A stretch of 64,000 bases of DNA from Alphaproteobacteria bacterium (GTDB lineage: Bacteria; Pseudomonadota; Alphaproteobacteria; JAJTHO01; CANGXP01): contig CANGXP010000002.1 in the NCBI GenBank assembly GCA_947457935.1, positions 47,701 through 111,700 of the forward strand, in the 5' to 3' direction. A program made the position numbers and the translations under genes. Positions 10,803-64,000 of the stretch are shown piece by piece. Every line of letters starts with the position of its first letter. Position 1 is the first letter of the stretch. The notes beneath the pieces are model-generated. The model had not been told where the DNA came from and did no database searches. It saw only the letters and a program-made list of their open reading frames with translations.

Positions 10803-12499
10803 AACAACTCCTCATTCTGCTATTGTACTTTCTTATCACCGCAAATGCACACGCCCAATCACAACCCCTGCCCCCCAAACAAGAAATCATCATCGGCACA
10901 ACAGAAACCTTAAACACGACGCATCCCCTGCTTGCCACAACCACCGCAGAAAAACTCCTTCTCGCGCTCATCCATCGCCCCCTCACAGCACTGAATAAAA
11001 AAATGCAGCCCATGTGTTTGGTGTGCGATAAACTCCCTACCCTAGAGAATGGCTTAGTAAAACCCGCCCCCACAGCCGAAAATGGCAACCTGATAAGCGT
11101 CACGGTGCGCTTGCCTGAGAATGCCAGATGGGGAGACAGCACGCCGCTTACCAGTAAAGATGCCTATTTTACTTGGCAAACAGCGAAAACGCTTATCAAC
11201 AGCGGCGTTACAATGCCCTTTTATCAACAGGTGAGTGATATTCAGATTATCGATGATAAGAAATTTATTATTTTGCTGAATAACGCTGCCTACGCACAAT
11301 ATTTCTTGCATGATTTTTATATTCTGTCGCAGCATGTTGAAAATGCAATTACAAACACCAAAACGCCCTATCTTGAAGCAACACGCTATAAAACAACCCC
11401 CTTTGACGTGGGCTTATTTGCAGGGGCATATCGCCTCACCGCGTTTAATGAAACGGAAGCCATTGTTGTGCCCAATACAGCATGGTGGGGCACGCAGAAA
11501 CCATTTCTACAGAGAATCACTATAAAGGTTTTCCCCCACGCAGAAGCCTTGCAAGAGACCTTACTAAAACAAGAGATTGACGTTGTTTTGCCCCCTGCAG
11601 GGTTAAGTTTTGACCAAGCATATGATACCTTAAAGACAAGTCTTAACACCAAAGAATTTGCAGTAAACCTCACCCCTTCAACACAATTAGAGCATCTTGT
11701 TGTCAATTTGCAAAACCCCCTTTTACAAGATGTGCGCGTGCGGCAGGCCTTATTACAAAACATCAACCGCGAAAAATTTAATGACCTTGTGTTTCAAAAT
11801 AAGCGATTTCTTGCCGACTCTTTCATGCCCCCCCAGCATCCCTTTGCCAGCGCAACGACAACAGAGCTAGAGAATGCCGCTAGCTTATTAGACGCATCAG
11901 GTTTTAAAAAGGGCGCAGATGGCATTCTTATCAATGAGAAACAACAACGCCTCTCCTTTGCCTTTGCAACCGTGAAAGATGATCCCGCTTTGACTACTCT
12001 ACAACAACTCATTGCAAATGCGTGGCGGCAAATTGGCGTGGAAACCACGCTGGAAAGCTACCCCCTAAGAGATTTAGAACAGCGCATTCTCCCACAAAAA
12101 CTTTTTACAGGCGTTGCCCTGATACGCTCCACATTGCCTGATACACAGCCACCAATACCCCTATTTTCCAGCACTGCCATCCCCAATGCTGCGAATCAAT
12201 ATCAGGGGCAAAACTATAGCGGTTGGCAAAATGAAAAAGTGGATAGCATCCTCGCTGCTCTTGCAACGTCAACAGATACAGCGGCAGCACAACAACGCTG
12301 GCAAGCCCTCAACGCCGTATACTTAGCAGAATTGCCCACCTTGCCGCTCTATTTCACCCCTGCAATAACCGTGTTGCCTAAGGATTTACAAGGCGTTCCG
12401 CTCTCCACAGGACATACCCCGCAAACATTCAATGCAGAGCAGTGGTTTTTCACCCCCCCTGTTGTGGTGCAGCCAAAGAAAATACGGGAGATTTTTTAG
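10799..12499 (+). CDS. Periplasmic substrate-binding protein of the peptide/nickel ABC transporter family (SBP family 5, OppA/DppA-like). No permease or ATPase genes are adjacent
   Basis: Signal peptide MKQLLILLLYFLITANAHA, about 560 aa, overall family-5 SBP-like composition. The start overlaps the pyrE stop (ATGA). Confidence 0.65.
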   Translation: MKQLLILLLYFLITANAHAQSQPLPPKQEIIIGTTETLNTTHPLLATTTAEKLLLALIHRPLTALNKKMQPMCLVCDKLPTLENGLVKPAPTAENGNLISVTVRLPENARWGDSTPLTSKDAYFTWQTAKTLINSGVTMPFYQQVSDIQIIDDKKFIILLNNAAYAQYFLHDFYILSQHVENAITNTKTPYLEATRYKTTPFDVGLFAGAYRLTAFNETEAIVVPNTAWWGTQKPFLQRITIKVFPHAEALQETLLKQEIDVVLPPAGLSFDQAYDTLKTSLNTKEFAVNLTPSTQLEHLVVNLQNPLLQDVRVRQALLQNINREKFNDLVFQNKRFLADSFMPPQHPFASATTTELENAASLLDASGFKKGADGILINEKQQRLSFAFATVKDDPALTTLQQLIANAWRQIGVETTLESYPLRDLEQRILPQKLFTGVALIRSTLPDTQPPIPLFSSTAIPNAANQYQGQNYSGWQNEKVDSILAALATSTDTAAAQQRWQALNAVYLAELPTLPLYFTPAITVLPKDLQGVPLSTGHTPQTFNAEQWFFTPPVVVQPKKIREIF

Positions 12500-12842
12500 G
12501 GGAACAACTATATAGTCGTTTCAAGAAATATTTGCCCATAGCCGAGAACAACTGCACCTGAACGAAATGTACACTTCCGTACATGAGCGAGGGTAAAGGC
12601 AGTTCGCAGGCATGGGCAGGTATTTATGGGAATGACTATAGTTGTTGCTAAATCATACCAACCCAAGAAAATTTCTGATATTTAGGCGAGCGAATTAGCG
12701 AGGATGCAAAACAGCAACGCTGTTTTGCACCGCAAGCCAATGATCCTTGCCAAACACAAGCCCAAAGGGCGCAGCGGAAAGTTTAGGCGCATTGGAAAAT
12801 GTGGCGCAGCCGAATAGCAGGAATTTAATGGGCTTGGTATTA
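12498..12842 (+). repeat. Interspersed mosaic repeat, copy A: modules 1, 2 and 3 between the SBP gene and the hbd 3-prime end
   Basis: Module 1 TAGGGGAACAACTATATAGTCGTTTCAAG...CCCATAGCCGAGAAC. Module 2 GTACATGAGCGAGGGTAAAGGCAGTTCGCAGGC...GGAATGACTATAGTTGTTGC. Module 3 CAAACACAAGCCCAAAGGGCG...GTGGCGCAGCCGAATAGCAGGAATTTAATGGGCTTGGTATTA. The element begins on the SBP stop codon (TAG) and ends on the hbd stop codon. Confidence 0.7.
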
Positions 12843-17070: not shown

Positions 17071-18428
17071 TACGAAAATTTTTCATTTTGGCAGGAGTTT
17101 TATTGATGGCGCACGGATTTAATGCAGCGGCGGGAACGCCCGCAACAACGGGGGTTTTCAACCCGCAGATTTTCACCCTTGAGAATGGGATGACGGTGGC
17201 GTTGATTGAAAATCATCGGGTGTCTGCTGTGGTGCATATGGTGTGGTATAAGGCAGGGGCGATTGATGAAAAGCCCTCAAAGTCAGGGGTGGCGCACTTT
17301 CTGGAACACTTGATGTTTAAAGGCACGAAAACCATTGCGGAGGGCGAGTTTTCTAAGCGGGTCGCAAAAGTGGGGGGCGAGGACAACGCGTTTACGAGTT
17401 GGGACTACACCGCCTATTTCCAAAAGGTTGCTACCAAAGATCTTCCTGAAATGATGACCATGGAAGCAGACAGAATGCAAAATCTGTTGTTGTCGGAACA
17501 CGCGGTGGAAACAGAAAATAAGGTGATTGTGGAAGAGCGTCGCTCGGTGATTGATAACAAGCCGACGCGTCAGTTTGCCGAACAACTGCAAGCCGCCACC
17601 TTTCTGCATCATCCCTATAAAACGCCCATTATTGGCTGGTATTCGGAGATGTCTTCTTTGAGCCGCGAGGATGTGTTTGATTTTTATAACACGCATTATG
17701 CGCCGAACAATGCGGTGTTGGTGATAGCGGGGGATATAACCTTGCCTGCGCTGAAAGAACTAGCGGCGAAAACTTATGGCAAAGTGCCGTCTCGTCCCGT
17801 TGCGAAAAGCCCTGTGATGAAAGAGCCGCCACAGCTTGCGGCACGAACGCTTGAAATGCGCTTACCCAACGTGCAAATGCCGTTATGGCGGCGGCAATAT
17901 GTCGTGCCCAGCTATGCAACGGTGGGCGAGGATAAAGGGGTTGTGGATGCGTTAGAAGTGTTTGCCCAGATTTTAGGCGGTGGGGAATCTAGCAGATTAT
18001 ATGAAAAGTTGGTTTTAAAGAAGCAAATCGCCACCAATGTTAGTGTGTATTACGAAGCGGCAAAGCGCGGTGACAGCACGTTGGTGATTGATGTAGTACC
18101 TGTTGATGATAGTACAGCGGGACTCGCCGCTGTGACCAGCGCGGTGGAAGCCGAGATTGCAGCACTACGCGTTAAGCCTGTGCTGCCTGAGGAATTACAA
18201 CGCACAGTGCGCTCTATGCAGGCAGAGGCGGTCTATGCCCGTGATAGCCTGATGCACCCTGCAACCGTGGTGGGCGAAACGTTAGCGTTGGGACTACCCA
18301 TAAGCTATATTGAAGAATGGCCAACACGGATTGGCGGTGTGACAGTAGAGCGAGTGAAGGCAGCGGCGGCGTTGTTGGATGTAAAAGCCTCTGCTACGGG
18401 GTATTTGTTACCTGCGAAGAAAAAATGA
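17067..18428 (+). CDS. Periplasmic M16-family zinc metallopeptidase, catalytic subunit (pitrilysin-like)
   Basis: Signal peptide and an inverted zincin motif HFLEHLMFKGT (HxxEH). 453 aa. Confidence 0.8.
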   Translation: MIRKFFILAGVLLMAHGFNAAAGTPATTGVFNPQIFTLENGMTVALIENHRVSAVVHMVWYKAGAIDEKPSKSGVAHFLEHLMFKGTKTIAEGEFSKRVAKVGGEDNAFTSWDYTAYFQKVATKDLPEMMTMEADRMQNLLLSEHAVETENKVIVEERRSVIDNKPTRQFAEQLQAATFLHHPYKTPIIGWYSEMSSLSREDVFDFYNTHYAPNNAVLVIAGDITLPALKELAAKTYGKVPSRPVAKSPVMKEPPQLAARTLEMRLPNVQMPLWRRQYVVPSYATVGEDKGVVDALEVFAQILGGGESSRLYEKLVLKKQIATNVSVYYEAAKRGDSTLVIDVVPVDDSTAGLAAVTSAVEAEIAALRVKPVLPEELQRTVRSMQAEAVYARDSLMHPATVVGETLALGLPISYIEEWPTRIGGVTVERVKAAAALLDVKASATGYLLPAKKK

Positions 18429-18460
18429 TGGTTTTTATGTCAGGACACGTTTCTGGAAAT

Positions 18461-18601
18461 ACCCCTCACCCCAACCCTCTCCCACAAGGGGAGAGGGAGT
18501 TTTCTTTGTGTTATATTCTTTGTACACATCTTGTAAAAATTGTTGCAAGCAGTATGCAGATGCTCCCTCTCCCCTTGTGGGAGAGGGTTGGGGTGAGGGG
18601 T
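18461..18601. repeat. Perfect 39-bp inverted repeat (arms 18461-18499 and 18563-18601, 63-bp spacer). MITE/REP-like element between the two M16 peptidase genes
   Basis: Left arm ACCCCTCACCCCAACCCTCTCCCACAAGGGGAGAGGGAG. Right arm CTCCCTCTCCCCTTGTGGGAGAGGGTTGGGGTGAGGGGT, an exact reverse complement. Each arm also contains its own hairpin, CCCTCTCCC-ACAAG-GGGAGAGGG. Confidence 0.8.
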
Positions 18602-19897
18602 AAAATATCTCTCTTCCTCCTCCTATTTACTCTATTCACTCCCCAAGAAAGCAAGGCTATGGTCGCGATTCAAGACATCACAACGCCCTCAGGCATTACA
18701 GCATGGTTGATAGAAGACCATGCCGTGCCGTTGGTGACGATCAATTTTATGGTTAAAGGCGGTGCGGCGGCTGATGGGGCAACAAAAGCAGGGTTGACCA
18801 CCGTTGCCACGCAAATTTTGCTGGAAGGCGCGGGGCAATATGACTCTCTCGCTTTCAGCAAACAGCTTGATGAATATGCGGTGCGCCTGAGTTTCAACAC
18901 AGGGCGGGATTATTTCAGCGGCACGCTGCAAACCCTCACCGAGAATTTGCCAAAAGCCATTGAGCTTGCTTCTTTAGCTTTAACACAACCGCGCCTTGAT
19001 AAAACCTCGTTTGCCCGTGTGAAAGCGCAACAGCTTTCAAGTTTGCAAGCCGCCAATCAAAACCCTGCCGAACAAGCCAAAAAGCTGTGGTGGAGAACGG
19101 CGTTTAAGGGGCATCCATACAGTGTTCCCACGGAAGGGGAAATGGCGACAGTTGAGAAACTGACGTTGAAAGACGTGCATGAATTTGCCAAAACGCGCCT
19201 TGGGCGCAACGCACTGATTATCAGTGTGGCAGGGGCGGTGAATAAAGAGCAAGCAACCGCGATGGTAGAGGGCATTTTTGGCAACCTCCCTCTGATTACC
19301 GTGCCTGCCCCTGTTGCGGTGCAAGCGGTGCAAAAAAGCGGGAATACAGTGGTGGAGAAAGTTTCTCTCCCGCAAAGTGTAGCGATTTTCGGGCAAACTG
19401 GCGTGCGCCGCATTGACAAAGATTATTACGCCGCAACACTGCTGAATTATGTGATTGGCGGCGGGGGATTTGCTTCGCGGCTCATGCATGAAGTGCGCGA
19501 AAAGCGCGGTTTAACTTATGGGATTGGCACGGCGTTATCCGACACCGTCGCGCAACCGTTGTTTTTTGGGCAAGTTTCCAGTGCGAATGAAACCGTAACG
19601 GAGGCTCTGACGCTAACGAAAGCGATTTTGGCAGATATTGCGAAAAATGGTATCACCGCGCAAGAACTACAAGATGCAAAAGACCATGAAAATGGCTCGT
19701 TTCCATTAGATTTGGATAATACTGAGCGGCTAGCGAGCCTTGCCTCTGCCATGCAATACTATGACCTGCCGAAGGATTTTTTAGAAAAAAGAGAGTCGCT
19801 GATTTCTGCGGTGACGTTAGACCAAATTAACCACTTAGCCGCTAAGGTGTTTCACAGCGATGCATTAGTTATTGCTATTGTTGGAAACCCTAAATAA
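18554..19897 (+). CDS. M16-family peptidase homologue lacking HxxEH, likely the non-catalytic partner subunit
   Basis: M16 fold similarity but no HxxEH motif. Predicted start MQMLPLPLWERVGVRGKISLFLLLFTLFTPQESKA is signal-peptide-like. The ORF track extends upstream to 18317, through an inverted repeat and across the previous gene's end. Confidence 0.65.
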   Translation: MQMLPLPLWERVGVRGKISLFLLLFTLFTPQESKAMVAIQDITTPSGITAWLIEDHAVPLVTINFMVKGGAAADGATKAGLTTVATQILLEGAGQYDSLAFSKQLDEYAVRLSFNTGRDYFSGTLQTLTENLPKAIELASLALTQPRLDKTSFARVKAQQLSSLQAANQNPAEQAKKLWWRTAFKGHPYSVPTEGEMATVEKLTLKDVHEFAKTRLGRNALIISVAGAVNKEQATAMVEGIFGNLPLITVPAPVAVQAVQKSGNTVVEKVSLPQSVAIFGQTGVRRIDKDYYAATLLNYVIGGGGFASRLMHEVREKRGLTYGIGTALSDTVAQPLFFGQVSSANETVTEALTLTKAILADIAKNGITAQELQDAKDHENGSFPLDLDNTERLASLASAMQYYDLPKDFLEKRESLISAVTLDQINHLAAKVFHSDALVIAIVGNPK

Positions 19898-23115: not shown

Positions 23116-23294
23116 AACAATCCCAACAACACTATTACAGGACTTACGCAGTGCTCGTCTTTTCGGTAATTTTGTTGTCAGAAAATTGCTCAAAATGCTC
23201 ATTTACGTCTAGTAAACTGCGCTTTTTCCCAAATTTCTTCCTAAAAATTCCTCAAAAATTCATCACCTGCGTAAGTCCTGTAGTCATAAAAAAT

Positions 23295-27363: not shown

Positions 27364-29478
27364 CTACGCCACGTCTTCTGCTTCTCCTGCAGGCGCATCT
27401 TCCAACTTCATGGTGAGGCGGATTTTACCGCGATCATCCACGCCAACAACTTTCACTTTAATAACATCGCCCATTTTGACGATGTCAGAAACTTGCTTCA
27501 CACGGTAGTTCGCCATCTCACTGATGTGCACCAAACCATCTTTTGCACCCAAGAAATTCACGAACGCGCCGAATTCGACGATACGCACAACCGTGCCCTC
27601 GTAAATTTCGCCGATTTCTGGCACAGCAACAATGGCGCGGATACGGCGGATTGCCTCATTGGTAGCCTCTTCCGAGGTTGCCGCAATTTTAATCGTACCA
27701 TCTTCGCCGATGTCCACTTTTGCACCGCTGAGTTCGCAAATTTCACGAATCACTTTGCCGCCAGAGCCAATCACATCGCGGATTTTATCCTTGTCGATTT
27801 TGATGGTGTGGATGCGCGGTGCATGTTGGCTCACGCCATCACGCGGGGTGTCTAAACCCTTTTGCATTTCGCCTAAGATATGCAAGCGACCGTCTTTGGC
27901 TTGTGCCAAGGCTTGCTCCATAATCTCCGCAGTGATGCTGGTGATTTTGATGTCCATTTGCAGCGCGGTTACACCGTTTGATGTCCCTGCTACTTTAAAG
28001 TCCATATCGCCAAGGTGATCTTCATCGCCCAAGATGTCAGAAAGAATAGCAAAGTCTTTGCCTTCTTTAATCAAACCCATGGCAATCCCTGCTACAGGGC
28101 GTTCCAGTGGCACACCTGCATCCATCAAGGATAGCGAGCCGCCGCACACGGTTGCCATGGAAGACGAGCCGTTTGACTCGGTAATTTCAGACACAATACG
28201 AATGGTGTACGGGAAGGTTTCTTTTGCAGGGAGCAGCGGACGAATGGCGCGCCACGCGAGTTTACCATGCCCAATTTCACGACGACCGGGTGAACCCATG
28301 CGCCCTGTTTCTCCTACGCTGTAAGGCGGGAAGTTGTAGTGCAGCATGAAGTTTTCATAGCGTTCGCCTTCAAGCGCATCAATCATTTGCTCGTCATCGC
28401 CTGTGCCCAAGGTGGTAACAACAATCGCTTGCGTTTCGCCACGGGTGAACAACGCACTACCATGCGTGCGCGGCAAAATGCCTACTTCTGATTCAATGCG
28501 GCGAATATCGGTGGTGCTACGCCCATCAATCCGTTTGCCTGTTTTCAGCACATCAAGACGCAAAATGTCTGATTCGAGATGCTTAAATTCAGAAAGAAGC
28601 TTCACTTTAGTAACATCCGCATTATCAGCAAACGCTTCTAACACTTTTTGCTTCGCTGCATCGATTTTCTCACGGCGGGGTTGCTTGTCTTTTTCTTTGT
28701 ATGCTGCAACAAGGTCTTTTTGTGCCAGTGTCGCGATTTTCTTTTTCACGTCAGCAGACAATGCGCCTTTTTCAAGGTCAATATCCCACGGGTCTTTCGC
28801 ACAGGTTTCAGCGAGCTGAATAATGGCTTGAATAACCGTGTTATAGGCTTCTTGTCCAAATTTCACCGCGCCCAACATGATTTCTTCAGAAAGCTCTTTT
28901 GCTTCTGATTCTACCATCAACACGCCTTCAGTTGTGCCAGCCACAACGAGTTCTAAAGAACCGTCTTGAATTTCTTGCGGGGTGGGGTTGAGGATGTATT
29001 GTCCATCAATGTAACCCACTTTTGCCGCCGCAATGGGTCCCATGAAGGGTAAGCCAGAAAGGGTGAGGGCAGCAGACGCGCCAATGATAGAGATAATGTC
29101 ACTGTCAGCATCGCTGTCATAGCTGAGTACGGTGCAAACAACCTGTGTCTCGTGCTTAAAACCATTGATAAACAGCGGGCGAATCGGGCGGTCAATCAGG
29201 CGAGAAATAAGGGTTTCTTTTTCGGTAGGGCGACCTTCACGCTTGAAGAATCCCCCGGGGATGCGCCCTGCTGCAAAGAATTTCTCTTGGAAATTGACGG
29301 TGAGGGGGAAAAAATCAATATCGGGTTTTGCTTCTTTTGCGGCAACAACGGTGCAGAGTACGGTTGTTTCGCCGAGGGTTGCCATCACGGCAGCATCAGC
29401 TTGACGGGCGACTTTGCCTGTCTCCAGAATAAGGGTACGTCCACCCCATTCAATTTCTTTACGGAATACTTTGAACAT
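27364..29478 (-). CDS. pnp: Polyribonucleotide nucleotidyltransferase (PNPase)
   Basis: 704 aa with two RNase PH domains, a KH domain and a C-terminal S1 domain ([20 protein letters not shown]). Confidence 0.9.
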
Positions 29479-29658
29479 TCTTTAATTTTCCTATTTTCTA
29501 TCCATTTGATGAGCGGTTCTAGCAGATATTTTACGAAAGCGAAACACAAATAAGGGCGACGGCACAGCGCACCATCGCCCTTACAAGATTAAAACTTACG
29601 CGAAGCATTTTAAACGCGTCCAAATGTCATTCCCGTGCAAACGGGAATCCACGCTTAA

Positions 29659-29693
29659 CTTAAAAAGTGTGGATCCCCTCTTTCGAGGGGATG
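29659..29693 (-). terminator. Intrinsic terminator of rpsO, with structured pnp leader hairpins following at 29540-29655
   Basis: On the mRNA strand: stem AUCCCCUC, GAAA loop, GAGGGGAU, followed by CCACACUUUUU. Additional stems follow (AUUCCCGU...ACGGGAAU and AAGGGCGAUGG...CCGUCGCCCUU). Confidence 0.55.
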
Positions 29694-29738
29694 ACAAACC
29701 GAACAATCGTTGCGCGCAAATTCGTTTGCAAAATAAAC

Positions 29739-30008
29739 TTAATAACGCAAGCCTAGTTTCTTAATCAAAACGCTATACCGCTGAAAGTCTGTACGCTTTA
29801 AATAGTCGAGTTGGCGGCGGCGTTGCCCCACCATTTTCAATAATCCGCGACGAGAAATGTTGTCTTTTTTGTGGGTATTTAAATGCCCTGTGAGTTCTTG
29901 AATGCGGGTGGTGAGCAAGGCAACTTGCACTTCAGGTGAGCCTGTGTCGCCTTCTTTGCGACCATATTCTTTTACAATAGTGCTTTTTGAAACGGTATCG
30001 AATGACAT
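29739..30008 (-). CDS. rpsO: 30S ribosomal protein S15
   Basis: 89 aa with an S15 signature ([24 protein letters not shown]...[12 protein letters not shown]). Confidence 0.9.
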
Positions 30009-30029
30009 CGGAGTTCCTCCAGTTTGTGA

Positions 30030-30902
30030 TTACAAAAATATGCCCCGTTGCGGTGCAAAGACGCTGCTCTCTATGCGCCCAAGGGCAATAAGAACACCAT
30101 CCAGCGTGCAATACGCAAGACCATCAGGCAGGGTTGTTTGTGTTAAAACAACAGGTTGCCCTTGGCGAATGCGGTGTGCGTCTTCCGCTGAAACAGCCAG
30201 TGCAGAGATGTCGTCCAGCACGGTTGTAAGCGGTTGCAGCACAGCAGCAACAGGATTAGCCAACACAGCATCAAGGCTAACGCACTGATTTTCAGTGATT
30301 TGCCCAACTTTTGTGCGGCGGAGGGCGACTATATGCGCGAACGTGCCCAATTGTAAAGCAATATCTTGTCCTAACACCCTGATATAGGTGCCTTTACTGC
30401 ACGTGGTGCTGAACATCGCCGTATCGGGTGTGGGACTACCACGGTATTGCAGATCATAAATCGTAATCGTGCGGGGTTGCAGCACAACCTCTTCCCCTGC
30501 GCGTGCCAGTGCGTAAGCACGTTGACCGTTTATTTTCAACGCGGAAAAAGCTGGCGGGGTTTGCTGTTGCGCCCCTAAGAATTTTGGAATGATGGCGGCA
30601 ATTTCCGCAGGCGTTGGCAGATGCGCAGACGTTGCAACTGTCTCGCCCTCTATATCGCCTGTGGTGGTGCTCCTCCCCCATTGCACGATGAAGCTATAGG
30701 TTTTTGGCGCATCCGCGATATAGGGCATGGTTTTTGTTGCCTCACCCAATGCAATCGGCAACACGCCAGAAGCAAGCGGATCAAGCGTGCCTGCATGTCC
30801 TGCCTTTTTGGTTTTGAAGGCACGCCGTACTTTTGTCACCGCGTCGTTGGAGGTGAGGTGCAGCGGTTTATCAAGGAAAATCCAGCCGTGGGGGAGTGTC
30901 AT
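30030..30902 (-). CDS. truB: tRNA pseudouridine(55) synthase
   Basis: TruB catalytic motif HAGTLDPLASGVLPIALGEATK. 290 aa. Gene order truB-rpsO-pnp. Confidence 0.85.
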   Translation of the reverse strand: MTLPHGWIFLDKPLHLTSNDAVTKVRRAFKTKKAGHAGTLDPLASGVLPIALGEATKTMPYIADAPKTYSFIVQWGRSTTTGDIEGETVATSAHLPTPAEIAAIIPKFLGAQQQTPPAFSALKINGQRAYALARAGEEVVLQPRTITIYDLQYRGSPTPDTAMFSTTCSKGTYIRVLGQDIALQLGTFAHIVALRRTKVGQITENQCVSLDAVLANPVAAVLQPLTTVLDDISALAVSAEDAHRIRQGQPVVLTQTTLPDGLAYCTLDGVLIALGRIESSVFAPQRGIFL

Positions 30903-32492: not shown

Positions 32493-32640
32493 GAATATTG
32501 TTGTTGTTTCAGTTTAGAATGTTACGCAGTCGAAAACGACCGCAACCGAACGAACGTGTACATTTTAGTACATGAGTGAGGTTAAGGGAAGTTTGCAGGC
32601 GTGTAACATTCTAAAATGGAATGACTACCTACCGCGCCCG
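32490..32640 (+). repeat. Interspersed mosaic repeat, copy B: modules 1 and 2 between lnt and the purF 3-prime end
   Basis: TAGGAATATTGTTGTTGTTTCAG...CGAAAACGACCGCAACCGAACGAACGTGTACATTTTAGTACATGAGTGAGGTTAAGGGAAGTTTGCAGGC...GGAATGACTAC aligns with copy A. It begins on the lnt stop codon. Confidence 0.65.
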
Positions 32641-34990: not shown

Positions 34991-36577
34991 ATGACCGCTC
35001 CCAAAGTTCTGATTTCCGATAAACTCAGCCCCCGCGCTATTGAAATTTTTAAAGAGCGCGGCATTGTTGCCGATGTAAAAACAGATTTAACCCCTGAACA
35101 ACTGAAAGCCTGTATTGGTGAGTATGCAGGGCTGGCGATTCGCTCAAACACCAAAGTCACCAAAGAAATTATTGAAGCAGCAAGCAACCTTAAAGTGATT
35201 GGTCGGGCAGGGATTGGGATTGATAACGTGGATGTACCCGCTGCCACCGCCAAAGGCATTGTGGTAATGAACACGCCGTTTGGCAATTCCATCACCACGG
35301 CAGAACACGCTATCGCTATGATGTTTGGCTTAGCAAGACAACTCCCTGCTGCCAATGCGTCAACCCATGCAGGGAAATGGGAAAAATCTCGTTTTATGGG
35401 CGTGGAAGTGACAGGAAAAACGCTAGGGATTATTGGCTGCGGCAACATTGGCGCGATTGTGGCAGATAGAGCCGTCGGGCTTAAAATGAAAGTCGTGGCG
35501 TTTGACCCCTATTTGTCAAAAGAACGCGCCGATGACCTTGGCATTGAGAAAGTTGAGACCATTGAGGAGCTATTGCCTCGCGCTGATTTCATCACGCTGC
35601 ACACGCCTTTAACTGAAAAAACAAAAGGTATTTTAGACGCAAAAAACCTCGCTAAATGCAAAAAAGGCGTGCGGATTGTAAACTGTGCCCGTGGTGGCTT
35701 GATTGTTGAAGCAGACCTCAAAGCCGCCTTAGACAGCGGCCATGTTGCAGGCGCGGCACTCGATGTATTTGACATTGAACCTGCCAAAGAAAACGTGTTG
35801 TTTGGGGATGAGCGCGTTATTGCCACCCCGCATTTGGGTGCATCAACCAGTGAAGCACAAGAAAATGTGGCGTTGCAAGTGGCAGAACAAATTTCCGATT
35901 TCTTGCTGACAGGGGCGGTTACCAACGCGCTCAACATGCCGTCTGTGAGTAGCGAAGAAGCCATTCGCTTGAAGCCTTACATGAAACTGGCAGAAATGTT
36001 GGGCAGCTTTGCAGGGCAAATTACCGAGACGGGCATCAAGTCTATCTCTCTTGAATACAGCGGCGCGGTAACAAAGCTGAACACCAAGCCTCTCACTTCT
36101 ATCACTGTTTCTGCCCTGCTCTCCCCGTTATTAGATTCTGTGAATGTCGTGAATGTTATGATGGTGGCAAAGCAACGTGACATTAACATCAGCGAAACAA
36201 AACACAGCAAGCATGAAGACTCTGCCGAGTTTGTGAAGCTCACTGTGCATACAGATAAGCGGTCACGCTCTGTGACAGGTAAAGTGTTTGCGCCTGATAG
36301 TGCTCGTATTATTGATATTGAAGGCATCGCGATTGAAGCCGAGTTAGGCAAACACATTCTATTCGTGCGTAACAATGACAAACCCGGTTTCATTGGGCGT
36401 TTAGGGTCAACCTTGGGCGATGCGAATATCAATATCGCCACCTTCACTTTGGGGCGCGTTGCCGCAGGGGAAGACGCGATTGCGCTGATTGAAGTTGACC
36501 AAGAAATAACCCCCGATATTTTGGAAAAAGTAAAGACTATCAAAAATGTGGTACAGGCAAGTGTTCTCCGCTTCTAA
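34991..36577 (+). CDS. serA: D-3-phosphoglycerate dehydrogenase (long form with ASB and ACT regulatory domains)
   Basis: 528 aa. Contains the NAD-binding GxGxxG (GIIGCGNIGAIVA) and a D-isomer 2-hydroxyacid dehydrogenase catalytic region. Confidence 0.85.
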   Translation: MTAPKVLISDKLSPRAIEIFKERGIVADVKTDLTPEQLKACIGEYAGLAIRSNTKVTKEIIEAASNLKVIGRAGIGIDNVDVPAATAKGIVVMNTPFGNSITTAEHAIAMMFGLARQLPAANASTHAGKWEKSRFMGVEVTGKTLGIIGCGNIGAIVADRAVGLKMKVVAFDPYLSKERADDLGIEKVETIEELLPRADFITLHTPLTEKTKGILDAKNLAKCKKGVRIVNCARGGLIVEADLKAALDSGHVAGAALDVFDIEPAKENVLFGDERVIATPHLGASTSEAQENVALQVAEQISDFLLTGAVTNALNMPSVSSEEAIRLKPYMKLAEMLGSFAGQITETGIKSISLEYSGAVTKLNTKPLTSITVSALLSPLLDSVNVVNVMMVAKQRDINISETKHSKHEDSAEFVKLTVHTDKRSRSVTGKVFAPDSARIIDIEGIAIEAELGKHILFVRNNDKPGFIGRLGSTLGDANINIATFTLGRVAAGEDAIALIEVDQEITPDILEKVKTIKNVVQASVLRF

Positions 36578-36675
36578 TACCAAACCCATTAAATTCCTGC
36601 AATTTTGCTGCGCCACACCATCGGCTTCAGTCATTGGCGTTGAGCCAACTCCATTCAGCCTCGGCTCGCTCACAA
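36576..36675 (-). repeat. Interspersed mosaic repeat, copy D: reverse orientation, module-2 start fused to module-3 end, immediately after the serA stop
   Basis: Plus strand TAATACCAAACCCATTAAATTCCTGCAATTTTGCTGCGCC is the reverse complement of the copy-A end GCGCAGCCGAATAGCAGGAATTTAATGGGCTTGGTATTA. The far end reads GTGAGCGAG (compare ATGAGCGAG of module 2). Confidence 0.6.
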
Positions 36676-36692
36676 AAATTTCAGAAATTTTC

Positions 36693-37781
36693 TTGGGTTG
36701 GTATAAGGTACTTGGCGGCGCATTATTTGCACTATGCGTTTATGGCGCAGGGGATTCTGCATCCATCGCCGCTGATTCTTTTAAAGTGGGGGATGCAACC
36801 TATTCGGTGGTTATCCAACAGCCCCTCACGCCACTGGTGGGGCTGGGAATACACAACACTATCCCTCAAAAAATAGTGGGGTTTGACCGCAATAACAAGG
36901 TGTATAGCCTAGAGGCATTGATTGGCACGTTGGTGCTAACACCCCTTAAGGACTTTGCGCCTGTTCCCCAACCCCTCTTAAAAGATAAGGTGGAAAACAG
37001 CGCGGTGAGCTATGGCAAAACCGAAATACAGTATGCGTATTTTGCGGATACTGTGGAGGGTGCTTTCTCCCCCATCCTCGGTAAACTCCCCGTGGGCAGA
37101 ACGCTTGTTGCAACCTTAAAAAATGGTGCAGATGTACGGTTTTCACTGCCAGCAGGATATGTGTATGAAAACACTGCCCCTGTTGTGATTGATCTCAATA
37201 ATGACGGGTTAGAGGAAATTGTTGTAACCGAAACCAACACGCAAACGGGAACGTCTGTGCTGGGGTTGTATATCACCGTTGAGGGGCGATTAAAGCGAAT
37301 GGCAAACTCCCCCGCTTTGCCACAACAAGGGCACTGGGTGGATGCACTAGGGACGCTTGATTGGCAGGAAGACGGCAAGCCCTCAATTTTGGCGATTGAA
37401 GCCCCCAACATCAACGGATTCTTGCAGTTTTACGGCATGAAAAACGGCAAAATGGAGAGTGTGCGGCGGGAATATGGCTATTCTAGCAGAATCGTTGGCA
37501 CGCCCTTAGCCCCAACACTGTTGCTTGCAGATATGGACGACAACGGCACACAAGAGCTGATGATACCGCGCAACAGCATGGATGCTCTTGCTATTTTAAG
37601 TTTCACAAAAGGGCTGATGACACGCCTGTATGAAACGGATTTACCTGCCCCGATTGCCTCTGCCTTTTATATTGCCTACACTGCCCCCCCCGAAAATCCA
37701 AAAAGGGCTGTGCATAGTATTGCATTCTTTTTGCGGGATGGGCAAATTGCGCTGATAACACGCGTACAGAAAGCACAATAG
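36693..37781 (+). CDS. Secreted hypothetical protein with FG-GAP/VCBS-like repeats
   Basis: Asp-rich repeat motifs VVIDLNNDGLEEIVVTE and LLADMDDNGTQELMIP. The start is uncertain. The ORF track starts at 36546, but that N-terminal part is occupied by an interspersed repeat copy. I suggest a TTG at 36693, which gives a signal-peptide-like N-terminus GWYKVLGGALFALCVYGAG. Confidence 0.4.
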   Translation: MGWYKVLGGALFALCVYGAGDSASIAADSFKVGDATYSVVIQQPLTPLVGLGIHNTIPQKIVGFDRNNKVYSLEALIGTLVLTPLKDFAPVPQPLLKDKVENSAVSYGKTEIQYAYFADTVEGAFSPILGKLPVGRTLVATLKNGADVRFSLPAGYVYENTAPVVIDLNNDGLEEIVVTETNTQTGTSVLGLYITVEGRLKRMANSPALPQQGHWVDALGTLDWQEDGKPSILAIEAPNINGFLQFYGMKNGKMESVRREYGYSSRIVGTPLAPTLLLADMDDNGTQELMIPRNSMDALAILSFTKGLMTRLYETDLPAPIASAFYIAYTAPPENPKRAVHSIAFFLRDGQIALITRVQKAQ

Positions 37782-43385: not shown

Positions 43386-45260
43386 TTAAAGTGTAATACC
43401 TACAGTGGCGATAATTTCTTGCACCACACTCGGATCTGCCAGCGTAGAAATATCCCCTAAGCTGTCCACTTCCCCCGCCGCAATTTTCCGCAAAATCCGC
43501 CGCATGATTTTCCCCGAACGGGTTTTGGGCAAGCCACTGCAAAACTGAATTTTATCAGGGGTGGCAATGGGGCTTAAGTGTTCGCGCACCTGTTGCACAA
43601 GGGCTTTTTTTAAAGCATCTGAAGGGGCGTATTCTTTATGCAAGATAACAAACGCATAAATGCCTTGTCCTTTCACATCATGGGGGAAGCCAACGACAGC
43701 TGCCTCCACCACCTCTTCTGCTTCGTCTAAAATTGCCTCAATTTCCGCTGTTCCTAAGCGATGCCCCGCGACATTAATCACGTCATCCACCCGCCCTGTA
43801 ATCCAATAATCACCGTCGCTATCACGACGACACCCATCCCCTGAAAAATAATACCCTGTAAAGCTGCTGAAATAGGTTTGCTCGAAACGGGCGTGGTCGC
43901 CATAGAGCGTGCGGGCTTGCGCTGGCCACGAATCAGCAAGGCATAAGTTGCCCTCTGCTTCTCCCTGTAACACCGTGCCATCATTATCAAGAATAACAGG
44001 CTGAATGGTGGGCAAGGGTTGCGTTGCACTGCCCGCTTTGGGGCTGGTGATGTGCGCCGCACGGGGGCTAATCAGAATGCCGCCTGTTTCCGTTTGCCAC
44101 CATGTATCCACCACCGCGCACTGCTTTAAGCCCACCTTTTCATTATACCAGTGCCACGCTTCAGGGTTAATCGGTTCGCCCACACTGCCCAACACGCGCA
44201 GGCTTTTGCGAGAGGTGCTGTCAAGGTAGCTATCGCCCTCGCGCATCAAGGCTCTGATAGCCGTCGGCGCGGTGTAAAAAATGTTCACTTGATACTTGTC
44301 GATAATCTGCCAGCAGCGCGACGCATCGGGATAGGTCGGTACGCCCTCAAAAATCAAGGTTGTTGCCCCGTTTGCCAACGCACCATAGACGGTATAGGTA
44401 TGACCCGTAATCCAGCCCACATCGGCGGTGCACCAATACACATCGCCCTGTTTATAGTCGAACACCTGTTCATGGGTATAGGCGGCATAAACCAAGTATC
44501 CGCCTGTTGTGTGGAGAACCCCTTTCGGCTTACCTGTTGACCCTGAGGTATACAGCAAGAACAACGGGGCTTCCGCGTTCATCGGCACGCACGGGCAATC
44601 GATGTCAACCGTTGTCGCGATGTCTTTATACGCAATATCGCGCCCGTCTACCCAATCGTTGAGTGCACAGCCTGTATGCTCAATCACCAGTACTGTTTCA
44701 ACAGTGATAAGATGCTCGAGTGCCTTATCCACATTGGCTTTGAGCGGCACGGCTTTTCCTGCTCTCCGCCCTTCATCGGCGGTTATCACTATCTTTGAGC
44801 CGCAATCCTCAATCCGTCCTGCTAATGCTTCAGGCGAAAATCCGCCAAACACCACCGAATGCACCGCGCCAATTCGCGCACACGCCAGCATGGCATACAC
44901 TGCCTCGGGAATCATGGGAAGATAGATGGTCACACGGTCGCCTTGTTCAACGCCCAGTTTTTTCAGCACGTTGGCAAAACGACACACGTTTTCATAAAGC
45001 TGTTGGTAGGTGATTTTTTGACTGTCTTCAGGATTATCCCCCTCCCAAATCAGCGCAGTATGATTGGCTTTAGCGGGCAAGTGGCGGTCAACGCAGTTGT
45101 AACACACGTTCAATTCACCATCCGCGAACCAGCGGATATGCACAGGGGATGTGAACGACACATCTTTTACTTCAGTGAACGGTTTATCCCACGAGAGGCA
45201 GAGGGCTTCTTGTGCCCAGAAGGTTGTAGCATCTAAAGAAACAGTGGGGTTGCTTGGCAT
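43386..45260 (-). CDS. acs: Acetyl-CoA synthetase (AMP-forming)
   Basis: 624 aa with an AMP-binding motif ([12 protein letters not shown]), a core YGxTE-like region (WWQTETGG) and the C-terminal lysine region ([20 protein letters not shown]). Confidence 0.9.
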
Positions 45261-45308
45261 AAATCAACATACCTTCTAGTTGTTGTTATTTTAATACGCA
45301 TTGCAGAT

Positions 45309-45385
45309 ATGTTTCACGTGAAACATTGTTTTCGCGGTAGAAAACCGCCATTTTTTCAAAAATCGGTGTTTTTTTAGGTGGCTTT
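45309..45385 (+). repeat. Roughly 80-nt repeat, copy 1: 18-bp perfect palindrome ATGTTTCACGTGAAACAT, then TGTTTTCGCGG, hairpin GCGGTAGAAAACCGC, T-run, and TTTTCAAAAATCGGYG
   Basis: It matches the reverse complement of 62294-62374 over about 75 nt. It lies in the acs upstream region, on the strand opposite to acs. Confidence 0.6.
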
Positions 45386-45426
45386 CAGAGGCAAAAAGTG
45401 TTAATTTTTCATTACTAATCAACGCA

Positions 45427-46413
45427 TTATGTATCAAGCGTATTATACATTTTCACAATTTTCATCACTAACGGATGTCGCACTACATCATCCTCGCTGA
45501 ATTGCGTAATGCCAATTTCAGGAATATCTTTCAGCAGGTGGAGTGCTTGAGAAAGTCCTGATTTTGAAGGGTGCGGCAAATCGATCTGTGTTAAGTCTCC
45601 CGTCACCACCATACGCGAGTTTTCCCCCAAGCGGGTGAGAAACATTTTTAATTGCATAGGCGTTGCGTTTTGTGCCTCATCGAGAATACAAAAGGCATTG
45701 GCAAGGGTGCGCCCGCGCATAAATGCCAATGGCGCAATTTCAATCTCATTATTCTCAATCTTCTTTTGTACTACGTCAGGGGGCAACATATCGTCTAATG
45801 CGTCATAGAGCGGACGCAAATAGGGATCGACTTTCATTTTTAAATCCCCCGGTAAAAAGCCGAGGTGTTCGCCCGCTTCCACAGCGGGGCGAGAGAGAAT
45901 AATCCGCTCAACTGCGCCCGCCATTAACAGTTCCACCGCTTTCGCCACCGCAAGGTAGGTTTTGCCTGTCCCTGCAGGCCCCACGCCAAACACCAACTCA
46001 CATTGGTTGAGCATCTTTAAATAGCCCGCTTGCCGTTGCGAACGGGGGTTAATAAATTTGCGCTTGGTTTTCACCAGCAACGACTTACTGTTGAAGTCTT
46101 CAAGGGCATCTGTTGTTTCAGGAGGCATCGGAGAATTTTCCTTATGAGGGGGAAGGGTTGCCATTCTAAGGGCTGCCATAACATCACTTTTTGTGACATC
46201 CTGCCCGTTCTCGAGGCGTTCATAGAGAGCTTGTAAGCAGCGTGTTCCTTCAAGCACAGCGTTTTCTTGGTCGCCCGATAGGGTTACAACATTGCCCCGT
46301 GTGCCGATGCGTACGGCGAGTTTCTCTTCAATACATTGGAGGTGGCTGTTGTGTTCCCCAAACAGTTGGGGGAGAAAGGCGTTGTTAGCAAGTTCAAGGG
46401 TTTGTTTGTGCAC
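45427..46413 (-). CDS. phoH: PhoH-like ATPase
   Basis: Walker A GPAGTGKTYLAVA and PhoH family conservation. Typical miaB-phoH arrangement. Confidence 0.85.
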   Translation of the reverse strand: MHKQTLELANNAFLPQLFGEHNSHLQCIEEKLAVRIGTRGNVVTLSGDQENAVLEGTRCLQALYERLENGQDVTKSDVMAALRMATLPPHKENSPMPPETTDALEDFNSKSLLVKTKRKFINPRSQRQAGYLKMLNQCELVFGVGPAGTGKTYLAVAKAVELLMAGAVERIILSRPAVEAGEHLGFLPGDLKMKVDPYLRPLYDALDDMLPPDVVQKKIENNEIEIAPLAFMRGRTLANAFCILDEAQNATPMQLKMFLTRLGENSRMVVTGDLTQIDLPHPSKSGLSQALHLLKDIPEIGITQFSEDDVVRHPLVMKIVKMYNTLDT

Positions 46414-55937: not shown

Positions 55938-55953
55938 TGTTTTATCATCCTTC

Positions 55954-56207
55954 TTAGGGGCATTAACTATATAGTTGTTTCAATTTAGAATTACCCATAG
56001 CCGAAAGCTGATGCTGCCAAAAAGCACTGCTTTTTGCAACAGCAGCCAATGAGCTTTACTAAACACAAGCCCAAAAGGGCGAAGTGATTAGTTTAGGCGG
56101 AATTGAAGCAGCGGCACGAAGTTTACCTTTTTGTAAATGAGAGACGCTAAGGGAAGTTTGCAGGCAGGGGTAATTTTAAAGTGGGACGACTATAGCAGCC
56201 ACAATCT
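55954..56207 (+). repeat. Interspersed mosaic repeat, copy C: modules 1, 3-like and 2, between the class IV aminotransferase gene and the asd start
   Basis: TTAGGGGCATTAACTATATAGTTGTTTCAATTTAGAATTACCCATAGCCGAAAGC (module 1). CTAAACACAAGCCCAAAAGGGCGAAGTGATTAGTTTAGGCGG (module 3-like). GTAAATGAGAGACGCTAAGGGAAGTTTGCAGGCAGGGG...GGGACGACTATAGCAGCC (module 2). Confidence 0.65.
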
Positions 56208-61501: not shown

Positions 61502-62266
61502 ATGAACAGCGTCACACCCAAAATTCGCTTTACGAATGTCTATAAATCTTTTGGCACCAAAAAAGTCCTTCAAGGGATAAATCTTGATGTGATGCCACAA
61601 GAATCAGTGGTTATTATTGGCGGGTCAGGCACAGGAAAATCCGTGCTGATTAAAAGCGTGTTAGGCATTGTAAAACCTGACAGTGGCACCATTGAGATTG
61701 AAGGACGCGATGTCAGCAAACTTTCGCACCACGAACGGGAGCAACAGCTTAAAAAATTTGGCATGTTGTTTCAAGGCGGCGCGTTGTTTGATAGCATGAA
61801 AATTTGGCAAAACATTGCTTTCGGGCTTATTCAAGGCGCGGGCATGGATAAAAAAGAAGCAAAAACCATTGCCCTTGAGAAGTTAAAACAAGTGGGGCTT
61901 ACGGCGGATGTGGCAGAGTTATACCCCTCTGAACTCTCAGGCGGGATGCAAAAACGCGTTGCCCTTGCCCGTGCCATTGCCACAAAGCCCGATGTAATTT
62001 TCTTTGATGAACCGACCACGGGATTAGACCCCATCATGGCGGATGTTATCAATGAGTTGATTGTAAAATGCGTGAAAGACCTTGGCGCAACCGCCCTCAC
62101 CATTACCCATGATATGCATTCGGTGCGAAAAATTGCTGATAAAGTGGCAATGCTGTTTGAGGGAAAAATCTTGTGGCAAGGCACGGTGGCAGAACTAGAC
62201 ACCTGCGATAATGACTATGTGCAAAAATTTGTCAGCGGGATGAGCACGGCGGTTAAGGTTGCTTAA
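61502..62266 (+). CDS. mlaF: Phospholipid ABC transporter ATP-binding protein MlaF
   Basis: Walker A GGSGTGKS, ABC signature LSGGMQKRVALARA, Walker B IFFDEPTTGLD. 254 aa. Confidence 0.8.
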   Translation: MNSVTPKIRFTNVYKSFGTKKVLQGINLDVMPQESVVIIGGSGTGKSVLIKSVLGIVKPDSGTIEIEGRDVSKLSHHEREQQLKKFGMLFQGGALFDSMKIWQNIAFGLIQGAGMDKKEAKTIALEKLKQVGLTADVAELYPSELSGGMQKRVALARAIATKPDVIFFDEPTTGLDPIMADVINELIVKCVKDLGATALTITHDMHSVRKIADKVAMLFEGKILWQGTVAELDTCDNDYVQKFVSGMSTAVKVA

Positions 62267-62293
62267 ATTAACTTTTTCCTCTTGAAATACTCC

Positions 62294-62374
62294 ATTTAAC
62301 CAAAAATTTATTTTCGCCGATTTTTGAAAATTTGGCTCAGTTCTGCCGCGAAAACAATGTTTCACGTGAAACAT
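62294..62374 (-). repeat. Roughly 80-nt repeat, copy 2 (reverse orientation): the same 18-bp palindrome ATGTTTCACGTGAAACAT plus the conserved flank
   Basis: CGCGAAAACAATGTTTCACGTGAAACAT on the plus strand is the exact reverse complement of the 28-mer at 45309-45336. Similarity continues through TTTTCAAAAATCGG. It lies about 45 bp downstream of the flippase gene stop, on the same strand. Confidence 0.6.
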
Positions 62375-62418
62375 AGTTGCAATGTAAGGCAAATATAGTG
62401 TAGCGTTGCGGGGTAAAA

Positions 62419-63843
62419 TTAACCTTTACGCTTCAGCAAGCCGTCTCTCACCCCCAATATATTGAGGGCAACAGCACTTACCCCATATAAACCGCCGCCC
62501 ACCAAAATTTTCACCACAAGAGACAGGGTGAGTGAGGGAAGGTGTACAAAATAAAGCCCCCCTGCCATAACACCCGTTGCAAGTATAATCTTTGCAATGC
62601 CCAACAGCGGCAGGGGCAACGGAAACACGCGCCGTGCTGCCCAGAATGTAATCACAATCGAAAAGCTATACGCCAGCACGCCCGCATATACCGCACCCAT
62701 TAAACCATAAATGGGGATGAGTGCATAGTTTGCACCAATGTGAAAAAGGGCGGCAGGGACAAGCACATACAATAAGATTTTATTCTTTTTAGCGAGCTGA
62801 AAACTATGGTCAATATAGTGTGCCTTTAGTCCAAACAAGAACGTGCTAAGGGCAACCCACGGCATGATGGCAATCGCCTCTGTGCGGAATTGTGCGCCTA
62901 AGAACACCGTTGCCATTTCAGGAGCGAGCATCCCGAAACCCACAGCAGCAGGAAGCCCCAAGCCGAAAATCCACAACGCGTTTTTCTCTAACTGTGCCTT
63001 CATTTTTTCAGGAGATTCTTGTTCTATTGTTTTTACCGCCAGTGGATGCGATGCCATCACGATAATCATAAACACCGAAAGAATCGCCTGTTCTGCCAGG
63101 CTATAGGCGGCAGAATATAAGCCTACCGCTTCACTGCCCAGCAAATCTTGCAAGATGAAGCGGCTGCCCTTGGAAATGCTAAATCCGAGAATTGACACCA
63201 GCATAATTGCCCAGCCATAGCTCCAAATCTCGCGCATGGTGGCGCGGGTTGCATTTGACAGCGCAAGAAATTTCACAACATTTTTCCTGTCTGCAACCAA
63301 CAGCACGGCATAGCCCAACATTTGCCCGATGATAACCATCTCGGGACTTGGTGAAATGAGGTAGAGAAAACCAATGGCAAACCCCGCACTTAACAACGCT
63401 TGCAGCGTTGCGAGCAGGCTATATTTTTTACTCTCCAATGTTGCCATATGGGAACGGAGCGTGAGCAATTGCAAACTAAATAAGACAAATTGCGGGATGG
63501 TGATCAACAATACAACACGCTGTATGCTTGGCTCCCAAAAGCCCCATAATATCGCCGTCCCGCCGATGACTGTTATCAAAACAGTGACTAAATACCACGC
63601 CCCGCAACTTGCGAGCAGCCGCTTTGTTGCCGTCTCATCAGGGCACGCCGCATGAAGACGCATAATCGCAGCACACAACCACTGACTAAAAAAATTCTGT
63701 CCCGCATTCATCACCGCCGTTGCAAGTGCGAGGTAGCCGTAATTCTCGACACTCAAAACACGCGTAAAGACTGCCACCGTGAGCAGCGACAACACGGCGG
63801 GAATAATTTGCGACGGGGCGTAACGAAGAATATGTTTAAGCAT
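62419..63843 (-). CDS. Polysaccharide/O-antigen flippase of the MOP superfamily (Wzx/PST-like)
   Basis: 474 aa, about 12-14 predicted TM helices, N-terminal polysaccharide-biosynthesis-protein-like region. Confidence 0.55.
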   Translation of the reverse strand: MLKHILRYAPSQIIPAVLSLLTVAVFTRVLSVENYGYLALATAVMNAGQNFFSQWLCAAIMRLHAACPDETATKRLLASCGAWYLVTVLITVIGGTAILWGFWEPSIQRVVLLITIPQFVLFSLQLLTLRSHMATLESKKYSLLATLQALLSAGFAIGFLYLISPSPEMVIIGQMLGYAVLLVADRKNVVKFLALSNATRATMREIWSYGWAIMLVSILGFSISKGSRFILQDLLGSEAVGLYSAAYSLAEQAILSVFMIIVMASHPLAVKTIEQESPEKMKAQLEKNALWIFGLGLPAAVGFGMLAPEMATVFLGAQFRTEAIAIMPWVALSTFLFGLKAHYIDHSFQLAKKNKILLYVLVPAALFHIGANYALIPIYGLMGAVYAGVLAYSFSIVITFWAARRVFPLPLPLLGIAKIILATGVMAGGLYFVHLPSLTLSLVVKILVGGGLYGVSAVALNILGVRDGLLKRKG

Positions 63844-63920
63844 TAACGGGCTAGATTTTTAAGGATTATCAAGGTATACTAAAGCTCTGTATATTAAAAA
63901 GACAGGACTTACACAGGTGA

Positions 63921-64000
63921 TGGATTTTCGAGAAATTTTTAGGAAGAACATTGCGAGAAAGCGCAGTTTACTAAACGTAAATGAGCATTTTGAGCAATTT
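63921..64000 (+). CDS. Possible 5-prime end of a gene continuing beyond the window (MDFREIFRKNIARKRSLLNVNEHFEQF...)
   Basis: An ATG-initiated ORF stays open to the window edge and is divergent from the flippase gene. Only 27 codons are visible. Confidence 0.2.

Follow-up and report, generated by a model that had tools for sequence, protein, structure and literature searches.

Two predicted chromosomal parS sites on an inverted, probably duplicated segment in an uncultured alphaproteobacterial genome

The 64-kb window, by which we mean the whole stretch of DNA that was analysed, holds two copies of the 18-bp palindrome ATGTTTCACGTGAAACAT. The 16-bp core of this palindrome, TGTTTCACGTGAAACA, is by its sequence the global consensus parS, the predicted loading site of ParB. 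The parS site is the centromere-like site of bacterial ParABS chromosome partition. We consider it probable (about 0.88) that both palindromes are chromosomal parS sites and that the similar DNA around them is an old duplication of a parS-bearing segment. The kind of element is already known, and the original prediction did not recognise what the palindrome was. With this assignment, an unexplained palindrome is settled as a probable instance of a universal bacterial centromere motif, and not a new regulator site or RNA.

Two palindromes with the parS consensus

The palindrome is exact at both of the places where it had been predicted (Table 1), and it has no other occurrence in the window. 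Allowing up to 3 mismatches to the 18-mer still returned 2 matches, where 0.03 would be expected by chance. The 28-mer ATGTTTCACGTGAAACATTGTTTTCGCG, also predicted to be conserved, is identical at 45309-45336 on the plus strand and at 62347-62374 on the minus strand. Repeat search and local alignment placed both within an ungapped inverted repeat of 68 nt, identical at 59 of 68 positions, whose two sides include CATTGCA..TATG and TTTTCAAAAATCGGYG, respectively. On the side away from CATTGCA, similarity continues more weakly and with gaps (AAATTAAC...TGAAA), which brings the unit to about 110-120 nt; the score of this local alignment was equalled by 2 of 1000 shuffles. Beyond CATTGCA the similarity of the two copies ends abruptly. 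The repeated element had been described as about 80 nt long and as including a hairpin and a T-run. The blocks CATTGCA..TATG and TTTTCAAAAATCGGYG are indeed common to both copies; the hairpin with its T-run belongs to site A only.

Outside the 18-mer, the core of the repeat is about 82% identical. The 10 further identical bases of the 28-mer therefore need no special cause and are compatible with chance (about 0.82^10, our own estimate). Considering that the flanks are about 18% diverged, drift is unlikely to have spared all 18 bases of the palindrome in both copies (about 0.03, or 0.82^18, again our own estimate), which we regard as mild evidence of selection on the palindrome.

Table 1. Positions of the two sites, the repeat copies and the adjoining genes in the window. 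L137 is a relative (JGI 3300034010).
Feature	Position	Strand	Remark
parS site A, TGTTTCACGTGAAACA	45310..45325	.	Perfect consensus match; within the 18-bp palindrome 45309-45326
parS site B, TGTTTCACGTGAAACA	62358..62373	.	Perfect consensus match; within the 18-bp palindrome 62357-62374
Repeat copy A, core (68 nt)	45299..45366	+	CATTGCA..parS..TTGTTTTCGCGG..hairpin..TTTTCAAAAATCGG
Repeat copy B, core (68 nt)	62317..62384	-	Inverted relative to A; 59/68 identical
Copy A, distal extension	45367..45408	+	Weak similarity (..TTTCAGAGGCAAAAAGTGTTAATTT); gapped local alignment
Copy B, distal extension	62265..62316	-	Weak similarity; about 11 nt more than in copy A; begins at the mlaF-like stop codon
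GCGG-N7-CCGC hairpin and T-run	45334..45357	+	Site A only, not common to both copies; kept in L137
Putative sigma-70-like promoter match for acs	45288..45317	-	Weak, 9/12; -35 GTGAAA inside parS, -10 TAAAAT at 45293-45288
acs (acetate--CoA ligase)	43386..45260	-	Start codon 49 bp from parS A
PhoH-like ATPase gene	45427..46413	-	100 nt between its stop and the edge of the 18-bp site A palindrome
MlaF-like ABC ATPase gene	61502..62266	+	Ends where repeat copy B starts
HfsF/Wzx-like polysaccharide flippase gene	62419..63843	-	Stop 45 nt from parS B

Both cores have 0 mismatches to the parS consensus tGTTNCACGTGAAACa. Their 16-bp sequence is the same as in the chromosomal parS sites of known ParABS systems (B. 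subtilis with Spo0J, Caulobacter, Hyphomonas), and the setting is also alike: intergenic, more than one site per chromosome, with housekeeping chromosomal genes around. Chromosomal parS sites were reportedly surveyed by Livny, Yamaichi and Waldor in 2007. The 16-mer is identical to a Hyphomonas EMSA probe, and a review table gives TGTTTCACGTGAAACA for H. neptunium and a near-identical consensus for Caulobacter and for Burkholderia chromosome 1 (PMC7022226). In vitro experiments on CTP-dependent ParB spreading employed the Caulobacter parS duplex GGATGTTTCACGTGAAACATCC, which has the 18-mer found here at its centre (PMC7053999). In the same work Caulobacter parS is contrasted with the Noc-binding site NBS, ATATTTCCCGGGAAATAT, which is of equal length and has the same palindromic architecture as the site described here (PMC7053999). 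NBS is bound by Noc, a ParB paralogue, through a ParB-family helix-turn-helix (PMC7053999; see also PMC7383237). NBS differs from our site at the specificity positions: the parS bases GTTTCAC/GTGAAAC are present here, as opposed to ATTTCCC/GGGAAAT in NBS. Noc is not known outside Bacillota, whereas the genes around the present sites are alphaproteobacterial in content.

Many phyla share the motif, and in other genomes it is linked to parB. In a GTDB set with one genome per species (596 Gb), the exact 18-mer was found in at least 120 loci; we estimate about 10-20 chance matches of an 18-mer for the whole collection. Among the matches listed, these loci belong to Actinomycetota, Bacillota, Bacteroidota, Pseudomonadota, Spirochaetota and more, including Streptomyces, Bifidobacterium, Clostridia, Bacillales, Campylobacterota and Alpha-, Beta- and Gammaproteobacteria. 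The sites are frequently clustered, with 2-4 within a few hundred bases among the matches listed. Six-frame translation revealed the ParB box II motif GERRxRA in 45 of 120 blocks (up to 8 kb each) among the matches listed, and all of the sampled ORFs with this motif (10/10) scored above the curated cut-off of TIGR00180 (ParB/RepB/Spo0J).

Predicted function and distance from parAB

From what is established for the ParB family, we propose that a ParB dimer would recognise the palindrome through its helix-turn-helix domains. As a CTP-dependent clamp, ParB would then bind CTP, close and slide onto the flanking DNA, and repeated loading would build a partition complex, to be segregated by ParA and to recruit and load SMC. 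The inverted orientation of the two copies would be irrelevant to ParB, because parS is palindromic. As for the origin of the pair, a short parS-bearing segment may have been duplicated long ago, leaving copies that are now inverted and 17 kb apart; selection would have preserved a perfect palindrome of 16-18 bp in each, with drift reducing the flanks to about 82% identity. Binding by a predicted ParB of the host, centromere function and this duplication history are what we infer from the sequence.

If so, the 17-kb stretch between the sites is predicted to be a likely ParB loading zone. The pair is also a candidate marker by which to place the origin domain of this uncultured alphaproteobacterium, which shows no other evident sign of its origin. 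Two points are slightly unusual: the duplicated flank at both sites, and the absence of parAB within tens of kilobases. Over about 101 kb of the 120-kb contig of this metagenome-assembled genome, comprising the window with about 37 kb on its left and about 9 kb on its right, neither a parB gene nor a further parS (up to 2 mismatches) was found. Likewise, the GERRxRA motif is absent from the 64-kb window and from 83 kb of loci of the same organism, which partly overlap the window. On one side, site A has no parAB for at least 55 kb; on the other, none lies in the roughly 10 kb from site B to the contig end. In the best-studied Alphaproteobacteria, among them Caulobacter and Hyphomonas, the parS sites adjoin parAB. 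Sites located tens of kilobases from parAB occur in other bacteria, for example B. subtilis and V. cholerae (chromosome 1).

Neither GC skew nor a DnaA-box scan gave an origin signal in the window. DnaA-box-like 9-mers (TTATCCACA, up to 1 mismatch) are more numerous over the whole window than in shuffles (30 vs 14.7), and they do not cluster in any of its intergenic regions.

Gene context, putative promoter overlap and RNA readings

Gene calls at both sites confirmed the predicted context, with one palindrome upstream of acs and the other about 45 bp past the flippase stop. Site A occupies a 166-nt spacer between the acs start and the stop of the PhoH-like gene, both on the minus strand, and its palindrome has its near edge 49 bp and its far edge 66 bp from the acs ATG. 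Site B occupies a 152-nt spacer between two convergent genes, bounded by the stop codons of the MlaF-like ATPase gene on the plus strand and of the flippase gene on the minus strand.

This arrangement bears on the first of the original readings, in which the palindrome was taken for the operator of a regulator. What survives of it is the kind of element, a predicted protein-binding site; as a consensus parS, the palindrome would be bound by ParB and not by an unknown regulator. We give next to no credence to the idea that an unrelated dimeric transcription factor, such as a metabolic regulator of acs, uses it as its operator. A perfect palindrome near the acs start would suit such a factor, but the same 18-mer is present in many phyla, linked to parB among the matches listed, and one of the two copies here has convergent genes on its two sides and nothing to regulate. 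Nor are there other copies in the window, even degenerate ones with up to 3 mismatches to the 18-mer, upstream of other genes. An operator placed upstream of the promoters of a regulon was rejected as a candidate on these grounds.

A different possibility is that ParB at site A, in addition to its proposed centromere function, also represses or modulates acs. Upstream of acs, on its strand, a single promoter-like match occurs; its -35 falls within parS, its putative -10 is retained in L137, and parS lies 49-66 bp from the ATG. ParB-dependent silencing near parS is known from P. aeruginosa and S. pneumoniae (PMC7022226; PMC4488948). The likeness to those systems (parS1-4 in P. aeruginosa, comCDE in S. 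pneumoniae) is a parS at promoter distance from acs; the difference is a second copy without an adjacent promoter. Since site B has no promoter, lying as it does between convergent genes, regulation cannot be the common function of both sites. The promoter match is also weak, at 9 of 12 positions, with 2 promoter-like sites found against 1.2 expected. In B. subtilis, moreover, loss of Spo0J leaves the expression of parS-adjacent genes unchanged (PMC7022226). Finally, conservation around site A runs into the coding sequences of phoH and acs, which fits a recombination tract better than intergenic constraint. Taken together, we consider an added effect on acs plausible but unlikely.

The remaining original readings concerned RNA: a small RNA gene ending in an intrinsic terminator on the strand opposite to acs, and a terminator of the flippase gene at site B. 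Neither held up, and we think it very improbable that site A encodes a short plus-strand non-coding RNA or that site B is an intrinsic flippase terminator. On the plus strand, site A has a terminator-like 5-bp GC stem, GCGGTAGAAAACCGC, followed by CATTTTTT (1 site vs 0.5 expected). In this short GC stem with its T-run, which L137 retains, site A resembles a Rho-independent terminator or small RNA; the palindrome can itself fold, into a 7-bp hairpin. At site B, on the other hand, the 3' arm of the stem is replaced, and a scan of both strands returned no terminator-like site there. Minimum free energy z-scores for both strands of both copies (-0.99, -1.62, -0.21 and -1.10) are not significant. 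The window as a whole has no Rfam match at the gathering threshold, and the two sites have none even at E<=1; a tRNA/tmRNA scan was also empty. No plus-strand promoter match is found upstream of site A, nor does any plus-strand gene end upstream of it that would need a terminator.

The window encodes an ATP synthase B' subunit among other alphaproteobacterial features, and the host is an uncultured member of the Alphaproteobacteria that branches deeply. Two close metagenomic clusters apart, no protein exceeds 62% identity to the PhoH-like protein, whose nearest named matches, at 57-59%, are from Kiloniella, Holosporales and Rhodospirillales. To the left of the window (L138/L139), Pal and TolB are at least 90% identical to NCBI entries labelled 'Nitrosomonadaceae bacterium'. 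This label is at odds with the alphaproteobacterial gene content and best named matches, and a public MAG was probably binned or labelled wrongly.

Several other features of the neighbourhood were observed. The nusA-infB-rbfA-truB-rpsO-pnp cluster, which is usually contiguous, is split: truB and pnp are at 27364-30902, and rimP-nusA-infB-rbfA lie about 36 kb away from them, beyond the right edge of the window (L122, 153-5410). Both parS sites fall between the two parts. A gene for a D12-class (Dam-like) N6-adenine methyltransferase (3063-4127, PF02086; within 1960-4127) adjoins a 371-aa ORF that has no NCBIfam match at E<=1e-25; the two could be a restriction-modification pair, or the methyltransferase an orphan methylase. 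The 90% cluster of the flippase (474 aa) also contains four 51-aa proteins (P0017, P0019, P0021 and P0022) of unrelated sequence. P0021 lies in an unrelated gene neighbourhood, and the 51-aa members are a clustering artefact of the collection.

The proposed duplication and the related genomes

Shared flanks set these two sites apart from other chromosomal parS. The copies here have about 50-100 nt of flank in common, whereas such similarity was absent from all within-locus pairs of other parS sites among the matches listed (0/46). Over 40 nt of flank, the best of the 46 foreign pairs listed reached 22/40 identical positions, compared with 33/40 on one side here. When the element was compared with the 120 foreign parS loci listed, only 18-24 nt around the palindrome matched. 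We infer that the flank similarity is due to a private two-member duplication, specific to this lineage.

Searches for additional members returned none. There is no further copy of the element in about 101 kb of the contig, and the plasmid collection has no match to the 126-nt element. Scanning JGI metagenomes with half of parS plus flank (GTGAAACATTGTTTTCGCG) gave 3 matches, all of which are without the palindrome and thus due to chance. Of the repeat family that had been suggested, the two-copy duplication is therefore what stands.

The gene order around site A is retained in L137, where the phoH - element - acs junction is present with site A whole. The phoH genes are 86% identical, and site A differs from its L137 orthologue by 3%. 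Because the two copies within the window are only about 82% identical, the duplication looks older than the split from L137. The phoH-acs spacer is more similar between the window and L137 than phoH is (97.0% vs 86.2%, p = 2.6e-6). The high identity is not limited to the spacer: it sets in about 150 nt within phoH and extends into acs. Recombination, or a junction shared recently, would explain such a tract better than constraint acting on the flanks. Spacer conservation in L137 was accordingly dropped as a sign of flank function. The tract itself covers about 360 nt (45214-45575 against 2168-2529 of L137) at about 97-98% identity, and the DNA just upstream of it is about 85% identical.

Three other close relatives have no parS at the corresponding gene junctions, and synteny is broken at each. 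One of them has phoH next to lpxL and acs behind a Zur-like gene, and parS is absent. In a relative of 94% identity, a different repeat and an IS5-like gene come after mlaF, and in the third the flippase is followed by an SBF transporter gene. Synteny with the relative L132 breaks at 62269. Both parS units thus lie at synteny breaks, a position that is not significant in itself, because breaks are so frequent among the genomes of the relatives. An inversion between the two inverted copies was rejected as the origin of the arrangement; the gene orders of the relatives do not match the ancestral order that it predicts.

The acs gene itself is found in three neighbourhoods among relatives with Acs at least 90% identical (L124 included): zur-acs-argF, phoH-parS-acs-purA and acs-AraC-glyoxalase. 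These varied neighbourhoods indicate unusually rapid local rearrangement or mobility of acs.

The position of the copies raises the question of whether the parS-bearing unit of about 110 nt is a small repeat, mobile or prone to copying, by which new centromere sites are seeded at the junctions of rearrangements. Like MITE or REP-type repeats, it is short, intergenic and at synteny breaks. Both copies lie exactly at breaks relative to close relatives, copy B fills all the space from the mlaF stop, where the 94%-identical relative has its other repeat and IS5-like gene, and the flank similarity is lacking in the 46 foreign parS pairs listed. The genome does have MITE-like elements. Unlike such repeats, the unit is limited to two copies in about 101 kb, with no true copy in the JGI metagenome scan or the plasmids. 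By inspection, its ends lack terminal inverted repeats and target-site duplication. In addition, a divergence of about 18% between the copies dates any copying far back, and since nearly every contig fetched has synteny breaks, finding both of two copies at breaks is not significant. A mobile repeat is therefore highly unlikely, and a MITE or dispersed family was rejected as a candidate on its two copies and on the terminal inverted repeats and target duplication that it lacks.

In a broader form of the same idea, which we regard as decidedly unlikely, the parS-bearing segment of about 110 nt would be a copy-prone module through which a deep-branching and heavily rearranged alphaproteobacterial lineage gains or relocates centromere sites. 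It would account for the pair of perfect parS sites, 17 kb from each other and separated from parAB by at least 55 kb (left) or at least 10 kb (right), of which one would overlap the acs promoter. Were this true, ParB loading and acetate metabolism would be coupled. An old private duplication of a parS-bearing segment is the reading that we prefer.

True MITE-like elements with terminal inverted repeats are found elsewhere in the window, at 18460-18602 and 23137-23283. The latter, of about 145 nt, lies between atpF and atpE and has the terminal inverted repeats ACAGGACTTACGCAG ... CTGCGTAAGTCCTGT. It is missing in the relative L135, where the alignment jumps from 23131 to 23290, and the window end cuts a second copy, inverted and 85% identical, at 63860-64000, upstream of the flippase gene. 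The unit at 18460-18602 is 143 nt long and bounded by perfect 40-nt inverted repeats (TACCCCTCACCCCAACCCTCTCCCACAAGGGGAGAGGGAG), each arm with its own hairpin. It falls within an automatically called ORF (18317-19897) and resembles a further miniature inverted-repeat element. One family of dispersed intergenic repeats, 70-90% identical, occurs at 12480-12842, 32500-32628, 36575-36704 and 55951-56192. A 44-nt piece of such a dispersed repeat (32525-32568) follows mlaF in the relatives L132-L134, at the place where parS copy B would be.
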